Part shown: positions 25,874 to 34,280 of the stretch, in pieces
Numbering within the stretch: position 1 is the stretch's first letter
Layout: the number at the start of each line of letters is the position of its first letter
Origin: Planctomycetota bacterium
GTDB taxonomy: Bacteria; Planctomycetota; Phycisphaerae; SM23-33
Direction of reading: 5' to 3'
DNA: 64,000 nt
Assembly: GCA_009908915.1 (NCBI GenBank)
Contig: JAAAOJ010000062.1
Location: forward strand, 5,594-69,593
Notes under the pieces: model-generated
What the model was told of the DNA's origin: nothing
The model's input: the letters and a program-made list of their open reading frames with translations, nothing else
Databases searched by the model: none
Position numbers and translations under genes: made by a program

Positions 25874-27337
25874 ATGCATCATTTTCTTGCACTGGACCTC
25901 GGGGCCGAGAGCGGCCGCGGCATGATCGTAACGCTGGACGGCGGAACGATGACGGAGGAGGAAATCCACCGTTTCCCCAACCGGACGGTGCCCATGGCCG
26001 GCACGCTGCACTGGGATTTTCCCGGTCTGATGGCCGAGATCCACGAGGCGATCCGCATCTGTGCGCATCGGGGCATTGAGCTGACGTCAATTGGCGTGGA
26101 CACCTGGGGCGTCGACTTCGGCCTGCTGGGCGCCGATGGCAAACTGCTGGGCAACCCGGTGTGCTATCGCGATACCCGCACGGTGGGCATCCACGCTTAC
26201 GCCGATGCAAAGCTCGACCGCAGGGAGATTTTCAAGCTTACGGCCTATGAACCGTGGCCGATCGCGTCGCTGTTCCAATTGCTGGCGATGCAGCGCGACG
26301 GCTCGCCGATTCTACCGGTGGCCCAGGGTTTTCTGAATATGCCGGACCTGATCAACTACTTCCTTACCGGCGAACAGCGGTCGGACAAGGCCATCGCCAA
26401 CACGACCAACGTCATGGACATCGACGGCCACTGGTCGCGACGGATTATCAACGCATGCGGCCTGCCGGATATGTTTGTGGACCTCGTCGAGCCGGCGACG
26501 GTGATGGGTACGTTGTCGAAAGAGGTGCAGGATGAGACGGGCCTGTTTGTGGACGTGCCGGTCGTCGCGGCCTGCGGGCACGATACGTCAGCGGCGATGG
26601 TGGCCGTTCCGGCCCAGCCCGACACGCGATGGGCCTTCCTGAGCTGCGGGACATGGAGCATTCCGGGCATGCTCATTGACTCACCGATTACGACCGACCG
26701 CGTGCTGGAGCTGAGCTTCACCAACGAGTACACCGTCGAGGGCTGGTACGTCGCCCAGAATATTATCGGCCTGTGGCTCGTCCAGCAGCTGCGACGCAAA
26801 TGGAACACGCCGGAAGCGCCGCTGGATTACGCCCAGATGACGGCCAAAGCCGCCGAGGCCGGCCAAGGCCCGATCATCAACGCCGCGGACGATTCGCTGA
26901 TGGCGCCGGCGGACATGGAGGCGGCGTTGCTGGCGCTGGTCAAGCAGGGCGGCCAGGTCGAGCCGGCCGGTCGAGGTGAGCTGGTTTACGGCGTGCTGCA
27001 GAGCCTAGCGCTGCAATACAACGTGGCGATCAACGCCATGGAAGAACTCACCGGCGAGCGGCCCGAGGCGCTGTACATGGTCGGCGGCGGCACCCGCAAC
27101 ACGTTGCTGTGTCAGTTGACGGCCGACGCGTGTGGCATGCCGGTTCAAACCGGCGTCGAGGAATGCACCTCGCTGGGCAACGCCTGCTGCCAGGCACTGG
27201 CCACGGGCGTGCTGAGAAGCGTCGAGGAGGCCCGCGAGGTTATGCGGAACAGCTACGACGTCCGTTCGTTCGAGCCGAAAGACCAGGACGCCTGGGCCAA
27301 GCGACGCGAGACCTACGCCGGCTTGCAGCAGGGATAG
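25874..27337 (+). CDS. FGGY-family sugar kinase, rhamnulokinase-like
   Basis: LDLGAESGRG N-terminal motif, GVDTWGVDF, and the FGGY C-terminal GGG motif (MVGGGTRN). Confidence 0.8.
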   Translation: MHHFLALDLGAESGRGMIVTLDGGTMTEEEIHRFPNRTVPMAGTLHWDFPGLMAEIHEAIRICAHRGIELTSIGVDTWGVDFGLLGADGKLLGNPVCYRDTRTVGIHAYADAKLDRREIFKLTAYEPWPIASLFQLLAMQRDGSPILPVAQGFLNMPDLINYFLTGEQRSDKAIANTTNVMDIDGHWSRRIINACGLPDMFVDLVEPATVMGTLSKEVQDETGLFVDVPVVAACGHDTSAAMVAVPAQPDTRWAFLSCGTWSIPGMLIDSPITTDRVLELSFTNEYTVEGWYVAQNIIGLWLVQQLRRKWNTPEAPLDYAQMTAKAAEAGQGPIINAADDSLMAPADMEAALLALVKQGGQVEPAGRGELVYGVLQSLALQYNVAINAMEELTGERPEALYMVGGGTRNTLLCQLTADACGMPVQTGVEECTSLGNACCQALATGVLRSVEEAREVMRNSYDVRSFEPKDQDAWAKRRETYAGLQQG

Positions 27338-27380
27338 CTGTCGAAACGGGCTGATGGGTCCGACGCGTTTGGCGAACGCG

Positions 27381-27420
27381 CAAAAAAGATCGCCCACCGG
27401 CGCCGAAACGCCGATGGGCG
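27381..27420 (-). terminator. minus-strand intrinsic terminator (hairpin then U-run)
   Basis: Plus strand reads AAAAAAG + CGCCCACCGGCG-ccgaaa-CGCCGATGGGCG (11 of 12 bp stem). On the minus strand this is a hairpin followed by a U-run. Confidence 0.45.
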
Positions 27421-27535
27421 TGCTCTGCTCTCTGCTCGTCGGCAAAGAGAACGAAACGGTTGCTCAGACCGCCTCGCAGGGGAAAGTTCCGGCAAGTGCT
27501 CAGTTTACCGGTGTGCTCAAAGAGGCTTGTTGCGG
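27420..27535. repeat. ~115-bp direct repeat, copy 1
   Basis: Near-identical to 27942-28054. The two copies differ by clustered substitutions and a 2-nt indel, so the repeat is not coding-conserved. Confidence 0.85.
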
Positions 27536-27941
27536 TGAGTTGCCCGGCGATGTGGCGGCCCCGCCGGCCGGAGCGACCGGCGGGACCTCCCGTGTTTTCG
27601 CTTCTGTCGGCAAGCAAGACGGTGGCCGGCCATCAGCGGGCCCGGCCTCGCCCGTCGGAGCACAATGTCGAGCATGCTCCAGCGGACTCACCTGTAAACA
27701 ATCTGGGCGAGGTTCACCGCCAAGGCATCCGGCCCGTCGGAAAGGGATGGCGGGCCGGTGCCTCGGTTCGGCTCTCTCTCGTCAGGCCCCGGGGCTGCGA
27801 ACATCCGGGTAGGATCGCGCCGCGAGGCGGCGTCGGCCACGGCTCAATGCGGCCGACTCATTCATCTTGAAGGCGGTGGTTGTAAAGGTTGTGCGGGCGT
27901 TAGGCCCGGCGGAATGAGCTTCCACCGGGCCTGTGCCCGTT

Positions 27942-28054
27942 TGCTCTGCTCTCTGCTCGTCGGCAAAGAGAACGAAACGGTTGCTCAGACCGCTTCGGGG
28001 GAGAGTTCCGGCAAGTGCTCAGTTTACCGGTGTGCTCAAAGAGGTTCGTTGTGG
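27942..28054. repeat. ~115-bp direct repeat, copy 2
   Basis: See copy 1. The copies are spaced 522 bp apart within a 966-bp convergent intergenic region. Confidence 0.85.
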
Positions 28055-28303
28055 CAGCGGTCAGCGGGCGGACCCGGCCGCCGGGTCGGGGTGACTCGGC
28101 GGCTCGGGCCTCGCTGATCTATATGGATCGCGTGTGGCTCGCGGGCGCGGCCCGCTGTGGCCGGGGCTGCCCGGCGGGGCGTTCGCTGCCTGATGCGAGG
28201 GCAACGCGTCTGCTGCGTGCGTCGAGGTCGCTATCCGGTTGTGACGGCCGTCCGCTGCAGGCCCTTTCGGCCTGGACGTTTCGTGGCGTCTGCGCTGGTT
28301 GCC

Positions 28304-29746
28304 TTAAGCGGCCTTGCGGGCCTTGCGGCGGCGGGCGAGTATGCCCAGCCCCCCCATTCCGAGGACCGCGAGGATACCGGGCTCGGGGACTTCCGCCGTC
28401 GGGGCAATGTAGATGCGGTTCTCGGGGAACCAGGTCCGCTCGCCCGTGATGGGATCTTCGTAGTAGACCTGCCCGTGGGCCAGCGTCTGCGTGTTGTCTA
28501 CGCCGAGGATAATCGGGGTTGCATCAACCTGGGCGTTGTTGCCGGGCTCAAAGCCCCAGTCCGTGCCGAAGTCCCAGACAACGAGCATTTCGATGTCATC
28601 GAGGGTCGTTTCGGCGAGGTCGATGCGGATGACCTGCTGATCGACCCAGAAGGGGACGTCGCCGCCGCTCGTGCCGGCCTGACCGGCCAGGCCGCCGATG
28701 ACGCCGCCGTCGCTCGACCGCTCGGTGTACTCGCTGCGGGTCTGGAAGGCGTCCTGGTACTCGTAGCCGAGGACCGCCAGGATCTCGGCGGCCGTGCGGT
28801 CGCTCAGCCCGTTGACCCAGCCTGCCAGCGTCTGTGGGTCGACTTCTTCGGACTCCATCGAGGCAATGATCGTATCAATCTCCGCGTCGGTGAGGTTCTC
28901 CGGCAGGTTGGCCGTGTACCAGTCCTTGCGTTCCTGGTTGGCAGCGTAGGTGTACTGCTTCAGGGCGTCGTCGAACTTCACCGGGTAACGCAGGCCTGTC
29001 GTCGGGTCAGCCGCCAGGTGGCTGATGTCGTTGGCCTGTGTGATCTGCGGGTTCGAGACGTTCTCGCCAAAGCCGTCGATCGTACCGGTGTACTGGCCGT
29101 TGTGGACCAGGATATCCATATCGACCCGGCCGGCCGGATCGCCGCTGCCGCCATTGCCGGGCTGGACAGCATTACTGGTCCAGCCGAGAGCCCAGCCGTT
29201 CGTGCCGGCGTACTTCTCGACGTAGTAGTCGCTGCGGGCCTGTTCATAGCCCGAGTCGCCGAAACTGGTGTCCCAGTACGTGGACGTGTTGTTGTCCGAC
29301 TGGCTGTAGGTCATGTAGAACGACAGCGTGTTCTCGTACTGCTTCGGCCCCCAACTGACAACGTCGGTGCCGGGATAGGTCTTGTCGGCGTAGTTCCCGG
29401 GCGAAACAGGGATATCGCCGTCGCCATCCTCGCCGCCGCCGAAGACCGTATCGTCCATCTCGTGCCACGCGTTCATCTGCGTTCCGCTGGAAACGGGCGT
29501 CCACCAGTTCTCAAAGGTAGCGACCCTCGTATCGCCGGGGTTGAGGATACCTTCGGTGGTGCTGCTACCTTCAGCGAACATATACCACGTCTTGACGGCA
29601 TCGCTCCGCAAGGGGCGATAGCCGTGTTCGGTGACCATGTAGTTCGGGTCCGGCTCGACGACGGTTCCGGCCAGGCCGGTTGTCGCCGTGAGCATGACCA
29701 GGAGCAATCCCAGGCCGATCAGATTGTTGAGCATTGTACATTTCAT
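28304..29746 (-). CDS. PEP-CTERM sorting-domain protein (secreted, exosortase substrate)
   Basis: N-terminal signal peptide and a C-terminal VPEPGILAVLGMGGLGILARRRKARKAA, matching the PEP + TM helix + Arg-rich layout of a PEP-CTERM domain. Asp/Gly/Thr-rich body. Start at MKCTML. Confidence 0.8.
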   Translation of the reverse strand: MKCTMLNNLIGLGLLLVMLTATTGLAGTVVEPDPNYMVTEHGYRPLRSDAVKTWYMFAEGSSTTEGILNPGDTRVATFENWWTPVSSGTQMNAWHEMDDTVFGGGEDGDGDIPVSPGNYADKTYPGTDVVSWGPKQYENTLSFYMTYSQSDNNTSTYWDTSFGDSGYEQARSDYYVEKYAGTNGWALGWTSNAVQPGNGGSGDPAGRVDMDILVHNGQYTGTIDGFGENVSNPQITQANDISHLAADPTTGLRYPVKFDDALKQYTYAANQERKDWYTANLPENLTDAEIDTIIASMESEEVDPQTLAGWVNGLSDRTAAEILAVLGYEYQDAFQTRSEYTERSSDGGVIGGLAGQAGTSGGDVPFWVDQQVIRIDLAETTLDDIEMLVVWDFGTDWGFEPGNNAQVDATPIILGVDNTQTLAHGQVYYEDPITGERTWFPENRIYIAPTAEVPEPGILAVLGMGGLGILARRRKARKAA

Positions 29747-30909
29747 GATGAGCAATCTCCCTTCACCTCACTCGGCGAGCAAGCCGTGTGGGCAAAACGT
29801 GTACCCAGAGCAGCAAGCGATGCTTTGGCGTGTGATGAGCGTTCATCTTCCGGTGGTCAGACATATCCCAGAGATCGTCTGGCTGACCGGACAACACGCC
29901 ACGTGCTGCTGCTCGAACGTCCCGGCCGGCGAGTAGGCTGATTGAGCGTCAGCCGCGGCGCCCGCAGGCCAGGTCAGGGTTCTGCAAACGTGCAGGTATT
30001 CACTTGTGTGACTCAGCAAACAAGGCTAAGTAACGTTCTAAAAGGCGGTTACACGTTTCTCCTTTGAGCAAGAGAGCCTTTCGTCCTTAGCATTGTCGGT
30101 GAGCCCGGGAGGAGCTCGCTATTGTATAGCACACTTCCTTTCTTCCGGCAGGGTGGTGCAAACTGGGAAGCAGTAAGGCGGGATTGAGCGATCCCGTTTG
30201 CCTGACCAAGCCGTTGCTGCATCCTCCAAAGGCGCGCAACGTAAGCACGCTTAGTCAGTTACCGCATATCCGAGCAGAGCATCGAGCCGGATCTTTGGCC
30301 CCGTGGGGCCGGTCCCGTCCAGATCTTCGGTGAGCGCCGAAGCCTGAACCTTACAAGCACAAACTCTCTCTGACCTCTCTCGTCGTCAAACCAAGGCGAA
30401 GAGCGTTTTTGCTTTTCAACCGTTGTTACCCTAGAACTACAGCAGGGCGGTCAGCGGTTTCGTCGGGACGTCTTACGGTCCAATCGAATGTGAAAAGCCA
30501 ATTTGCCGTTCGTGACATCTGCCTGGCAGGCCCCAGCCTCATAGCCGGTTGAGCACAAACCCATCATGCAGGTGAACAGTCACGAACTGCGGAGAGAAAG
30601 GGAGCCATGGTCCAGAGCCATCGAGCAGAGCTGTTCGGTTTCACTGAGCACATGAGCAATATCTTTCTCTGAGCACTCATCAGTCTATACCGAATCGACA
30701 CCGGCGTCAAGGCAAAAAACAGCATCCAGAGGAAATTTTCAACAGGGCGGACTGGCAGGGCGGCAACCACATTATCAGCCCGTTTGGAAATTGGTCGCAT
30801 CCCCGACCCGACGTCGCGGCACTCTCAACATGTATGGCCCTGCTACAGCACGATGATTGCGCTACCCAACGTCCGAAGGTGTTGAGCCAGCCAGGTGGCC
30901 ACGTATCCT

Positions 30910-31029
30910 GACGCCTCCCTCAGACATCCGAGGACGTGCCGATCAGCACCGTTTTCGTGACATAACGTCTTTGTTTGCGTTGCAAAATCGTTCTGGTTTT
31001 CCGCCCGCCTGACTTTTGAGGGAGGCGTC
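30910..31029. mobile_element. MITE-like 120-bp element with 13-bp perfect terminal inverted repeats and a 6-bp TSD
   Basis: Terminal inverted repeats GACGCCTCCCTCA ... TGAGGGAGGCGTC. Flanked on both sides by TATCCT (30904-30909 and 31030-31035). No ORF. Confidence 0.6.
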
Positions 31030-31063
31030 TATCCTGGTCAATTGCCGCGGCATTTTTCTCTTT

Positions 31064-31187
31064 GACGGCTCCCTCAATACTCCGGGGTAGTACCCCTCAG
31101 CTCCATTGTCGTGACGTAACGTCTTCGTTTTCGCTTGCATCACAGGAACAGTTTGCTTTTCCGGCCATCTGACTTTCGCGGGAGGCT
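31064..31187. repeat. decayed second copy of the MITE-like element
   Basis: Left end GACGGCTCCCTCA, shared internal CGTGACGTAACGTCT core, degenerate right end (..CGCGGGAGGCT). No target-site duplication. Confidence 0.45.
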
Positions 31188-31413: not shown

Positions 31414-31704
31414 TCAGCGGGCAAAGATTCGCCCAAGGTCAACGCGGTCGTCGACAACCTGGACTGTATTGCGCGACGGGTCTGTCGCGTACACGAGCAG
31501 TTTCTGCTTCGGGATGTCGATGACGTACAGCAGCGATGACGAGTCTGAAATCTGGCCCGTGGCCATAATGTAGTCGCCGGTCATGGTGCGACTGGTTGTG
31601 GCCGCCTGGGCGGACTGGCTCTTCCAGGAGCCGACGACAAGGACGCCGAGGACAACGGCTGTGACCATCAGCATTGCGATCAGTGTATTCTGGTTCGTCT
31701 TCAT
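31414..31704 (-). CDS. small secreted protein, paralog A (~96 aa)
   Basis: Signal peptide and an AGGTGA ribosome-binding site. Clear paralog of the next gene: DYIMATGQISDSSSLLYVIDIPKQKLLVYATD aligns with DYVAAVGEISSDYDALFITDLASRRMVALKWD. Confidence 0.55.
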   Translation of the reverse strand: MKTNQNTLIAMLMVTAVVLGVLVVGSWKSQSAQAATTSRTMTGDYIMATGQISDSSSLLYVIDIPKQKLLVYATDPSRNTVQVVDDRVDLGRIFAR

Positions 31705-31756
31705 GGTTTCACCTTACGGGTTGAGTGTCGGGGGTTAATCTCGCGAGGGTCGCCGT

Positions 31757-32035
31757 TCAGCGCCCGCCGAAGTCGCTTTCGAGGTCGTGCGGACCGAAGG
31801 CGACCATTCGTTGGGCGTTCTTGTCCCATTTGAGGGCGACCATGCGTCGACTGGCGAGGTCGGTGATGAACAGTGCGTCGTAGTCGCTGGAGATCTCTCC
31901 CACGGCGGCGACGTAGTCCGTGCTTTTGAAGCTCTGGGCCTGTGCGGGCGCCATGTTCAGGTGGATCAGGCCGGCCAGCAGAGCGCCGTTGAGGACGATC
32001 AGGCCGACGATCATCATGCGTTTCATCTCGGTCAT
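31757..32035 (-). CDS. small secreted protein, paralog B (~92 aa)
   Basis: Start at MTEMKRMM, with a GGGAGA ribosome-binding site 7 nt upstream. Signal peptide. Paralog of 31414-31704. Confidence 0.55.
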   Translation of the reverse strand: MTEMKRMMIVGLIVLNGALLAGLIHLNMAPAQAQSFKSTDYVAAVGEISSDYDALFITDLASRRMVALKWDKNAQRMVAFGPHDLESDFGGR

Positions 32036-32186
32036 TGGATTCTCCCGTCTGTGTAGTCTGTCTAATCTGTCTAGTCCGTGTGGCCAAAGTCGAGGCGGCA
32101 ACGAGCCGTCCCGACCGGGTTATCGGCAATGCGTCACACGAATGGACACACGAGTGAGCCCGTGGTTTGCGAGCCAGGCCGGTTTC

Positions 32187-32399
32187 TCACTCGTCTTCCA
32201 GGTGCGACCGCCTGGGATTGTGGAACACGGCAAGAAGTACGGCGATGAGCGAAAGCCCCGCCAGGGCGATACCAACGTATGGCACGCCGTTTTCAACGTC
32301 CGGTGCTTGGTAGTTGTCGCCGGCCTTCGCGAGTGCTGTTGTCGCCAGCACCGACAGAGCAGCGGCGACCCGTCGTGTCCAGGAGCGTGTGAGTGTCAT
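32187..32399 (-). CDS. small (70 aa) protein with N-terminal signal and C-terminal TM anchor plus basic tail
   Basis: MTLTRSWTRRVAAALSVLATTALA signal, then ...VPYVGIALAGLSLIAVLLAVFHNPRRSH. Weak ribosome-binding site, so low confidence. Confidence 0.35.
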   Translation of the reverse strand: MTLTRSWTRRVAAALSVLATTALAKAGDNYQAPDVENGVPYVGIALAGLSLIAVLLAVFHNPRRSHLEDE

Positions 32400-32850
32400 G
32401 GACGAATTCTATCCGCAACCGAGAGGCGAATGCAACACCACCCTGCCAGAGCGATTTTCACAAGAGGCGGGTGATGTCCGTCGCCGCGGCGGAGAAGTCC
32501 TAGACCCCATTGCCAGCGTCTACCATTTCTAGCTGCGCGGGCTGGCCATGGCGACCCGGCCAGACATGCCGTTTCGTAATGCACGCTTCGCTGGGCCATG
32601 ATCCCCGATCTCGACCTGTTGCATATATGTGTTGCCTTACACATGTTGCCAATGCCATATGTTCCATCTGTTGCCGCGACAGTGCTGCGTATGTGCGCGG
32701 TTCAGCACCTGCTGGACCGCGCTTTGGGAAACACCGGTTCGGCACTTCCCCCGGAATGCCGTTGGCACGGCTGGACCGCGTGATCCTGAAATTTGCTGGT
32801 GCAGCAGGTGCTGCGCCAGCCACGTGACGGTTACCGCACTCACGTGATGA

Positions 32851-34143
32851 TTACTGCAGCCACTTGCCCGGATCGTCCAGGAACGTCGTGGCGTCAATGT
32901 CCGTTTCCTCGCCGCTGGCCATCGTCTTGATCCGGAGGTCATTTCCGCTAAGCAGCACCGAACAACGGGCGCCACGTTTATCCGCCTGCTTGAGTTGCTT
33001 GCCGACGTTCTGCCGCCTGGTGTGGCAGTCCGCGGAAAAGCCGCCCTTCCGCAGCCGGGCCACCAGGTCCAGCACCTTTGGAAACACGCCCTCGACGGCG
33101 TCGATAACAAAGAAATTCAGGCTCTCGCTGGCCAGGTCGGCCGGCAGCAGGCCCTTCTCGTCCAAGAGGATGCCCAGCACCACATCACCCATGCCGAAGC
33201 CCGTTGCCGACTCGGCCGGCCCCCCTACCACCTGCAGAAGATTATCGTACCGCCCTCCCCCGGCGACGGCCCGCTCGCCGGCAGCGATGGCCTCGTAGAC
33301 CACGCCCGTGTAATACGCCAGGCCGCGGACGACCCGCAGGTCAAGCACGCACCACTCGGCGATGCCGTAGGCCTCAAGGTAGCCAAGCAACTGTGAGAGG
33401 CGCTCGACGGTCTGGCCGATATCGACGCGTCCGCTGTAGTCGGTGAGCAACTGCTCGACGGTCACGTTCTCGTGACTGAGCAGGTCGCGGATGACGGAGG
33501 TCTGCTCGTCGTTGAGAAAACTCTCGGCGAGCAGTTTATCGAAGGCGTCTTCGGGCAGCTTGAAGCGTTTGTCGACCAGTGCCAGCACGTCGTCGCGACG
33601 CTCGGTCGGCACGGCCAGGCTGTCCAGCACAGCCGTCCACAGCGGCCGCGAGCCGATGCGCATTTCCACGTCGGCGGGCGTGAGGCCGAATTCTCGAAGC
33701 GCCTCGACGCAGGCGAAGATGCACTCGGCATCGGCAAGGATATCGTCCACGCCGATGACGTCGACGTTCCACTGGAAGAATTCGCGCAACCGTCCCCGCT
33801 GGGGCCGTTCGGCCCGGCAGAGGCGCGGAACGCTGAACCACTTGACCGGGCGCGGCAGTGCGTTGATCTTCTCGGCAACCATGCGGGCCAGCGACGGCGT
33901 GATCTCCGGGCGGATGGCCAGGTCGCGCCCGCCGCGATCGGTGAAGCTGAAGAGCTGCTCGGCGATCTCCTCGCCGCTCTTGACCGTGAACAGGTCGAGG
34001 TACTCGAAGATCGGCGCGTCGTATTCCTCGAAGCCGCAGCGCAGCGAGACCCTCCGCCAGGTGTCGATGATGTAGTTGCGCAGGCGCATCTCTTGCGGGT
34101 AGAAGTCGCGCGTGCCCTTGACGGCCTGGAAGTTGCTCGCCAT
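32851..34143 (-). CDS. hisS: histidine--tRNA ligase
   Basis: KGTRDFYP near the N-terminus, class II motifs (GGRYD), and an anticodon-binding C-terminus. Start MASNFQA (CAT 34141-34143). Confidence 0.9.
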   Translation of the reverse strand: MASNFQAVKGTRDFYPQEMRLRNYIIDTWRRVSLRCGFEEYDAPIFEYLDLFTVKSGEEIAEQLFSFTDRGGRDLAIRPEITPSLARMVAEKINALPRPVKWFSVPRLCRAERPQRGRLREFFQWNVDVIGVDDILADAECIFACVEALREFGLTPADVEMRIGSRPLWTAVLDSLAVPTERRDDVLALVDKRFKLPEDAFDKLLAESFLNDEQTSVIRDLLSHENVTVEQLLTDYSGRVDIGQTVERLSQLLGYLEAYGIAEWCVLDLRVVRGLAYYTGVVYEAIAAGERAVAGGGRYDNLLQVVGGPAESATGFGMGDVVLGILLDEKGLLPADLASESLNFFVIDAVEGVFPKVLDLVARLRKGGFSADCHTRRQNVGKQLKQADKRGARCSVLLSGNDLRIKTMASGEETDIDATTFLDDPGKWLQ

Positions 34144-34280
34144 GTCGGTCAATCCTTGGTGCCCGTTATGAGTAATGCGTTATGAATTCAGGGCAGTCGC
34201 GAATGTAAATGAGGACAGCGATGGTGCCTGCCGCTTTCCATTCATAACTCCGAATTCTTAAATTCGAATTCACGGTCGAT

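Follow-up and report, generated by a model that had tools for sequence, protein, structure and literature searches.

What fills the 966 nt between two convergent genes of a planctomycete, and why does this gap hold the same sequence of about 115 nt twice? The locus lies in a 64,000-nt stretch of contig JAAAOJ010000062.1 (positions 5,594 to 69,593; assembly GCA_009908915.1, a Planctomycetota bacterium of the Phycisphaerae lineage SM23-33), hereafter the window, to which coordinates refer unless a relative is named; loci of relatives are designated by L numbers. The gap (27338-28303) separates the stop codon of an FGGY-family kinase gene from that of a minus-strand gene encoding a PEP-CTERM protein. 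We find that the repeats are paralogous copies of an undescribed structured RNA module of ~115 nt, conserved and read on the minus strand. The module most likely belongs to the 3' end of the PEP-CTERM messenger, and it may pair with the 5' end of that same messenger.

A structured RNA module in two copies

The initial annotation of the window, made from its letters and open reading frames (ORFs), had described two near-identical ~115-bp copies, and these are indeed present at 27421-27535 (copy 1) and 27942-28054 (copy 2). A repeat search recovers them as two blocks, 63 nt at 94% and 57 nt at 93% identity, and their starts are 521 or 519 nt apart, the two values arising from a 2-nt indel between the copies. 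Taken as whole RNA units, named A (copy 2) and B (copy 1) in the order in which the minus strand is read, they are 92% identical. Core probes of 32 and 40 nt each occur exactly twice in the window, and none of 100 dinucleotide shuffles of the window contains a match. A short motif had been noted three times per copy; the count stands, while its letters had to be corrected to the minus-strand forms UUGAGCAC, CUGAGCAC and CUGAGCAA, which can be summarised as YUGAGCA(C/A). The pentamer GAGCA occurs six times per copy. The minus-strand terminator described next to copy 1 is real as well: its stem (27420-27391) has 13 pairs, 10 of them G-C, closed by a loop of 4 and followed by AUCUUUUUUG (a U6 tail).

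From its 5' end, unit B consists of UUGAGCAC, a first hairpin (hp1; 7 bp, loop ACUGAGCAC), a linker, AACUUUCCCC, that resembles an anti-Shine-Dalgarno (anti-SD) sequence, a second hairpin (hp2; 9 bp, loop CUGAGCA), a third hairpin (hp3) and a GAGCAGAGAGCAGAGCA tail; the loops of the units read (A)CUGAGCA(C) and CUGAGCA. Folding each copy and looking for compensatory changes, as the initial annotation had proposed, gave three hairpins and covariation across relatives. Folded singly, the two copies reach z-scores of -2.9 and -4.5 on the minus strand, against 0.0 and -0.3 on the plus strand. RNAalifold, run on an unbiased MAFFT alignment of four copies (those of the window and of L007), returned the three hairpins; of their 26 pairs, 4 are compensatory. 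From this alignment we built a covariance model, R1, and its refined version, R2. Among ten distinct copies in the model-fitted alignment, standard pairs fill 97.6% of cells, compared with 38-55% when the partners are slid, and 13 pairs have changed on both sides (all 7 in hp1, 6 of 9 in hp2); none of 500 shuffles reached the observed pairing and covariation values. The alignment contains 23 G-U cells, and pairing falls to 90.2% when the opposite strand is read; G-U pairs fit the minus strand alone. Strand-biased folding, covariation and G-U pairs thus all support the minus-strand RNA element that had been proposed. The stems drift; the unpaired parts (UUGAGCA, UGAGCA, UCCC, CUGAGCA and GAGCAGAGAGCAGAGCA) are conserved at 88% or more, and the unpaired linker CUCUCCC between hp1 and hp2 is near-invariant.

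The module matches no described class in the collections that we searched. Rfam 15 at gathering thresholds gave no match in the whole window, and a permissive search (E up to 10) of 27200-28450 gave sub-threshold noise that did not exceed 21.7 bits, where the gathering scores are 45-100; the search for tRNA and tmRNA genes was negative. A gapped-motif scan returned 3 matches in 185,579 species-representative genomes, 13 in JGI metagenome contigs and 2 in IMG/VR viral contigs, all judged to be chance for want of similarity beyond the pattern and of any covariance-model match at the matched sites, and plasmid blastn gave no match. Absence from these collections is weak evidence: the source genome and the JGI samples of the relatives are evidently not in them. 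Two readings that the initial annotation had set against its own also fail. A dispersed repeat of the repetitive extragenic palindrome (REP) or miniature inverted-repeat transposable element (MITE) kind was rejected on the two full copies in 64 kb and on a position fixed relative to one gene family in all lineages. Coding sequence, intact or decayed, was rejected too: ORFs of the gap have no Pfam match, tblastn of 173 flanking-family proteins stays at or below 26 bits, which is noise, and an antisense ORF called by gene callers over the units in one relative has no homologue but itself among 5.8 billion proteins. With indels of 1, 2, 6 and 8 nt between copies besides, the claim that the gap is non-coding held. 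New in this study are the hairpin that closes copy 2, a third, diverged unit at 27722-27862 and an array of complementary motifs in the PEP-CTERM leader.

Linkage to the PEP-CTERM gene

The module occurs downstream of orthologous PEP-CTERM genes, on the strand of the gene, in five to six Phycisphaerae lineages, usually as a tandem pair. Pairs were found in L012 (of the same lineage as L007) and in L013/L014/L015, both with a PEP-CTERM protein 73% identical to that of the window. L011 (87%) and L040 (76%) have one unit, as does L017 (46%), where it scores 36.7 bits (59.5 bits with R2). The most distant case is L023 (40%), whose remote unit scores 19.6 bits and keeps the order of elements and the terminator. 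This L023 unit starts at the stop codon of the PEP-CTERM gene; the single units of L040 and L017 lie 400-540 nt past it. In L007, the kinase of which is 71% identical, the order is kinase, terminator, copy, ~340 nt, hairpin, copy and PEP-CTERM gene, and the copies have diverged. The far neighbour varies (the kinase in the window, dprA in L013, a leuA-like gene in L017) and the unit is still found with the PEP-CTERM gene. Conversely, in the closest relative by kinase (77% identity) the kinase is followed by pheS after a 47-nt gap, with neither element nor PEP-CTERM gene. The element therefore travels with the PEP-CTERM gene and not with the kinase. Unit A of the window is 83% identical to the single unit of L011, below the 92% that it shares with unit B, which suggests from sequence that A and B were recently homogenised. 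The B copy of L012 is closer to the B copy of the window than to its own A copy.

The arrangement of transcription signals makes it most likely that the units are the 3' tail of a ~3.3-kb PEP-CTERM mRNA, possibly processed. Four observations carry this reading: (i) no terminator is predicted between the PEP-CTERM stop codon and unit A in scans and folds of the window, L012, L013 and L017; (ii) a canonical terminator follows the last unit only, in the window and equivalently in L012, L013, L017, L040 and L023; (iii) the L023 unit begins at the stop codon; and (iv) no sigma-70-like promoter scored upstream of the units, with the qualification that planctomycetal promoters are poorly defined and that a box, AUAGAUC, is conserved there. 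The only conserved sigma-70-like promoter on the strand of the gene lies ~930 nt upstream of the AUG, with a predicted transcript start just ahead of the first GUGCUCAG, and in the window no terminator is predicted inside the leader that follows. The hairpin closing unit A, the architecture of which is the same in L011, L012 and L013, has no U-tail, so that read-through past it is likely. By prediction, the units lie as small RNAs (sRNAs) derived from 3' untranslated regions (UTRs) do: downstream on the same strand, sharing the terminator of the gene with none intervening. The initial annotation had offered sRNA genes or a structured PEP-CTERM 3' UTR; both options remain supported, with the evidence leaning to the 3' UTR.

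Complementarity between the units and the leader

The most enriched hexamer found de novo in seven leaders (6.3 kb) is TGCTCA, with 53 occurrences against 3.1 expected (p = 1e-45; 7/7 lineages), and TGAGCA is absent from them. In the units the ranking is reversed: TGAGCA comes first, with 26 occurrences against 0.54 expected, and TGCTCA is absent. The top hexamers of leaders and units are thus exact reverse complements. In the window UGCUCA stands at -929, -912, -904, -809, -324, -8, +13 and +52 from the AUG (lowest coordinates 30670, 30653, 30645, 30550, 30065 and 29749, then 29728 and 29689 in the first codons), and 8 of the 27 UGCUCA sites on this strand in 64 kb fall within ~1 kb. CUCUGCUCG, the complement of CGAGCAGAG in the units, occurs twice in the leader (~30630 and ~30279), and for unit-complementary 7-, 8- and 9-mers the leader exceeds all 470 control segments. 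The predicted accessibility of leader GCUCA sites is ~2.5 times that of pentamers matched in composition (p ~1e-6); at least 12 accessible (N)GCUCA motifs are predicted in the window leader, and several leader motifs sit in hexaloop hairpins with co-varying stems. The array is also found in L012, L013, L016, L018, L039 and L023. L020 has neither array nor unit, with 93 nt between the PEP-CTERM and kinase stops.

A second complementarity concerns the initiation region, which reads GAAGGGAGA-U-UGCUCA-UC-AUG. The linker CUCUCCC(UUC) is predicted to be complementary to its own SD, GAAGGGAGA, over 6-9 nt, and UGCUCA lies between SD and AUG throughout the tandem-unit clade (window, L011, L012, L013). 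Linker and SD of the same lineage match better than those of different lineages; the L017 linker, CCUUCCCU, can form 8 nt with its own SD, AGGGAAGG, and 5 nt with an SD of the window type. Two further candidates were set aside. In the window the 5' ends of unit and leader could form 11 bp, a pairing that L012 and L013 do not conserve and that is not used as evidence, and full-length RNAduplex runs of the units against the initiation region gave long, unrealistic duplexes (z -1 to -3) that we judged uninformative.

We propose, with about even confidence, that pairing of the 3' units with their own gene's leader and initiation region tunes translation and/or mRNA decay. A single ~3.3-kb transcript would run from the TTGACR-N17-TAGACT promoter through leader, coding sequence and units to the terminator of the last unit, and processing might release the units. 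The UGAGCA motifs that the units expose, together with their anti-SD-like linker, would then pair with accessible UGCUCA sites, the initiation region being the key target; the partners could belong to a single molecule or to different ones, in cis or in trans. The outcome would be feedback on PEP-CTERM translation and/or mRNA decay. More tentatively, and as a possibility that we hold to be the less probable of the two, the whole messenger may be a self-contained multivalent riboregulator, in which 8-15 accessible (Y)GCUCA sites, spread from the extreme 5' end to the ribosome-binding site, face 2-3 tail modules with three UGAGCA and one anti-SD each. Many weak contacts between motif and anti-motif, inside an mRNA or among copies of it, might then determine translation and decay or build RNA-RNA assemblies of higher order. 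We know of no bacterial mRNA for which such an architecture has been reported.

Several points weigh against tail-to-head pairing. The L016 leader has a GCUCA array, but the 866 nt that follow its PEP-CTERM gene contain no unit; a unit in cis is thus not strictly required for the array, which may serve a different factor. The excess of leader sites in hairpin loops is marginal (25% vs 17%, p = 0.055), which is why we claim accessibility and not loop display. The linker of L023 is not anti-SD-like, C/U-rich runs of this kind fit any purine-rich SD to some degree, and complementarity is kept only at the level of 6-8-nt motifs. Separate transcripts would also be compatible with the conserved box ahead of unit A and with the U-runs that follow this unit in L012 and L013. 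Finally, the independent lineages number five to six, all metagenomic, and the pair counts come from a model-fitted alignment.

Such separate transcripts underlie a rather unlikely alternative, in which the units are independent sRNA genes with their own promoters, acting in trans on other mRNAs with UGCUCA and/or SD sequences, and their linkage to the PEP-CTERM gene reflects co-regulation or history. Each unit does have a closing hairpin, the last one a full terminator; besides the U-runs, the box CCAUAUAGAUCAGC precedes unit A by ~60 nt in four lineages and, as a variant, in L017, the single units of L040 and L017 stand well clear of the stop codon, and L016 has its array without a nearby unit. 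However, no sigma-70-like promoter scored ahead of any unit and nothing is conserved upstream of unit B, the L023 unit begins at the stop codon, and within the 64 kb complementary sites cluster most strongly in the leader of the adjacent gene itself. The L016 array would equally suit protein-binding RNAs, sponges of the CsrB/RsmZ type or assembly platforms offering about six GAGCA to a putative protein, with the leader array serving a different factor or being incidental. We consider this improbable: the six GAGCA per unit, several of them looped or single-stranded, are near-invariant while the stems vary, but if units and leaders were unrelated, their top hexamers would be exact reverse complements with a prior probability of ~1 in 4096, and GGA loop motifs of the CsrA type are absent. 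We also know of no protein that recognises GAGCA.

That the stems drift and the unpaired motifs are the most conserved parts is the opposite of what purely structural elements would lead one to expect. It leaves only a slight probability for passive 3' structures devoid of a sequence-specific role, whether they stabilise against 3' exonucleases or act as a compound terminator for convergent genes. GC-rich hairpins and a terminator between convergent genes would suit such a role, and long structured 3' UTRs are common (PMC3868564), yet the complementarity of the motifs with the leader would be left unexplained, and L020 and L003 manage with gaps of merely 93 and 47 nt. Least probable, and already largely refuted, is an element acting as DNA, be it a miniature mobile or REP-like repeat, a set of transcription-factor sites or decayed coding sequence. 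In double-stranded DNA, TGAGCA cannot be told from TGCTCA, so that one DNA-binding protein could in principle explain both arrays, and the window copies are homogenised to 92%. Against this, compensatory changes preserve helices of RNA, the G-U pairs of which fit one strand alone, and the orientation bias of TGCTCA over TGAGCA is strict (53 vs 0 in leaders, 0 vs 26 in units). A mobile element is hard to reconcile with only two full copies in the 64 kb, with a position that is fixed relative to the gene in all lineages and with viral matches that are chance and plasmid matches that are nil; decayed coding sequence meets the indels and the lack of any Pfam, tblastn or antisense-ORF homologue signal.

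The locus in context

The coordinates of the elements are collected in the table.

Table. Features of the locus and of the corresponding regions in relatives (window numbering unless a relative is named).
Feature	Position	Strand	Basis or remark
FGGY-family kinase ORF	25874-27337	+	ORF/Pfam scan
Intrinsic terminator closing unit B and probably the whole PEP-CTERM transcript	27381..27420	-	scan and fold
Unit B (copy 1)	27417..27534	-	covariance-model match 127 bits, covariation, fold
GC-rich window-specific insert (~190 nt), middle unit to unit B	27536..27730	-	alignment; absent from L012, L013
Middle diverged unit	27722..27862	-	four-lineage alignment; weak model matches in relatives
GC-rich nested hairpin closing unit A	27894..27939	-	fold; no U-tail
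Unit A (copy 2)	27938..28053	-	covariance-model match 126.5 bits; architecture as unit B
Conserved box (U)CCAUAUAGAUCAGC	28115..28129	-	four-lineage alignment; variant form in L017
Small hairpin CAGGCC-GAAA-GGGCCUG just past stop codon	28258..28274	-	conserved; no U-tail
PEP-CTERM protein gene (480 aa, AUG at 29746)	28304..29746	-	PF07589 / TIGR02595; 53 homologues
Conserved ~930-nt 5' leader with (Y)GCUCA array	29747..30675	-	comparison across lineages
Sigma-70-like promoter TTGACG-N17-TAGACT	30682..30710	-	conserved in L012, L013 (TTGACR-N17-TAGACT)
Synteny block	31414-34152; L013 1382-4389; L020 2678-5413; L016 388-1965	- (window)	
PEP-CTERM regions with array/unit variation	L016 3275-5568; L020 6001-7504		

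Between stop codon and terminator, the blocks follow one order in four lineages: stop hairpin, box, unit A with its GC hairpin, middle unit, unit B with the terminator. In the middle unit, a 9-bp hairpin (~27832-27857) carries AUUGAGCC in its loop and is followed by CCUGACGAGAGAGAGCC and by a GC hairpin, CCGGCCCG...CGGGCCGG; 4 of the 9 pairs of the 9-bp stem show compensatory changes across the four lineages. The box CCAUAUAGAUCAGC, where no promoter of the sigma-70 type scored, could by its sequence serve as a weak -10-like element or mark a site of processing. The leader also contains GGGUACACGUUUUGCCCAC, a block conserved ~80 nt ahead of the AUG (~29820-29840 on the minus strand; 5922-5936 in L013, where it scores as a weak hairpin with a U-run), and it might be an attenuator or a pause site. 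Upstream of the leader promoter there is a second pair of direct repeats (30909-30979 and 31063-31133, 154 nt apart), 76% identical over 71 nt, which belong to ~130-nt units, each with GCCUCCC...GAGGGAGGC as its closing long-range stem. One of the two units folds significantly, though on both strands, and the core GACGTTAYGTCACGA was not found in any relative that we fetched.

The PEP-CTERM gene and its leader end a synteny conserved in Phycisphaerae, in which hisS, a ~172-aa protein, a 71-aa protein and two paralogous ~95-aa proteins precede them; the latter two have an N-terminal hydrophobic segment and no family match. In the 480-aa PEP-CTERM protein, the family match is confined to the C-terminal sorting signal. 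Its AlphaFold model is confident (pLDDT 81.7, pTM 0.84) and has no neighbour among solved structures in a Foldseek search (best E = 0.11, TM at most 0.15), so that the fold of this conserved surface protein is an uncharacterised one.

Bacterial cases of communication between 5' and 3' UTRs are, to our knowledge, very few (icaR, hbs). In the icaR mRNA of Staphylococcus aureus, a 3'-UTR anti-SD, UCCCCUG, pairs with the SD of the same mRNA (Ruiz de los Mozos et al. 2013, PMC3868564). Pairing of this type is marked by a demonstrated duplex, an inhibited initiation complex and cleavage by RNase III. Here too a long 3' UTR would carry a C-rich anti-SD (CUCUCCC), a block of initiation is proposed and the gene concerns the envelope or biofilm matrix; as in icaR, the linker faces the SD by sequence, and the adjacent UGAGCA(A) faces (U)UGCUCA between SD and AUG. 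The differences are also clear: 2-3 repeated structured modules instead of one motif, a multivalent arrangement (three UGAGCA per unit versus 8-15 UGCUCA in a ~930-nt leader), no sequence homology and another phylum.

Tandem RNAs behind a gene recall the CcsR1-4 'cuckoo' RNAs of Rhodobacter sphaeroides, which lie in a 3' UTR, depend on the promoter of the host gene and are released by RNase E (PMC8034643). Both systems line up homologous structured RNAs with a conserved hairpin-loop motif, co-transcription being deduced in our case. Their loop motif is CCUCCUCCC and ours UGAGCA, and their host gene encodes a small DUF1127 RNA-binding protein and ours a 480-aa PEP-CTERM protein, so that the CCUCCUCCC/DUF1127 signature of that group is missing here. 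The CcsR target flhR lies elsewhere and the host leader has no complementary array, whereas here the array is in the gene's own leader.

Paired sRNAs such as PrrF1/PrrF2, AbcR1/AbcR2 and OmrA/OmrB are near-identical, adjacent, intergenic RNAs of ~100-150 nt with intrinsic terminators and regulated promoters of their own. Our units resemble them in being near-identical adjacent copies kept similar within a genome, but they have no evident promoter and track the 3' end of one gene family. CsrB, RsmY and RsmZ sequester a protein through many copies of a short GGA motif in loops and single-stranded linkers. The many exposed copies of a short motif in a non-coding RNA are common to both; here the motif is GAGCA, there is no GGA in loops, and a complementary array lies in the neighbouring leader, which speaks for RNA-RNA rather than RNA-protein recognition.

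A literature search returned nothing on sRNAs or UTR elements tied to PEP-CTERM genes in Planctomycetes, and regulatory RNAs are, as far as we know, essentially uncharted in Planctomycetota. The module would be a new covariation-supported RNA family for this phylum. If the proposed pairing is true, a repeated motif and its anti-motif, conserved at both ends of an mRNA, extend 5'-3' pairing from a single contact to a multivalent one. The presence or absence of array and unit in L016 and L020 is a natural variation that can be exploited. Since its host gene encodes a conserved, syntenic, exosortase-sorted PEP-CTERM surface protein, the element may mark a tightly dosed component of the Phycisphaerae envelope.

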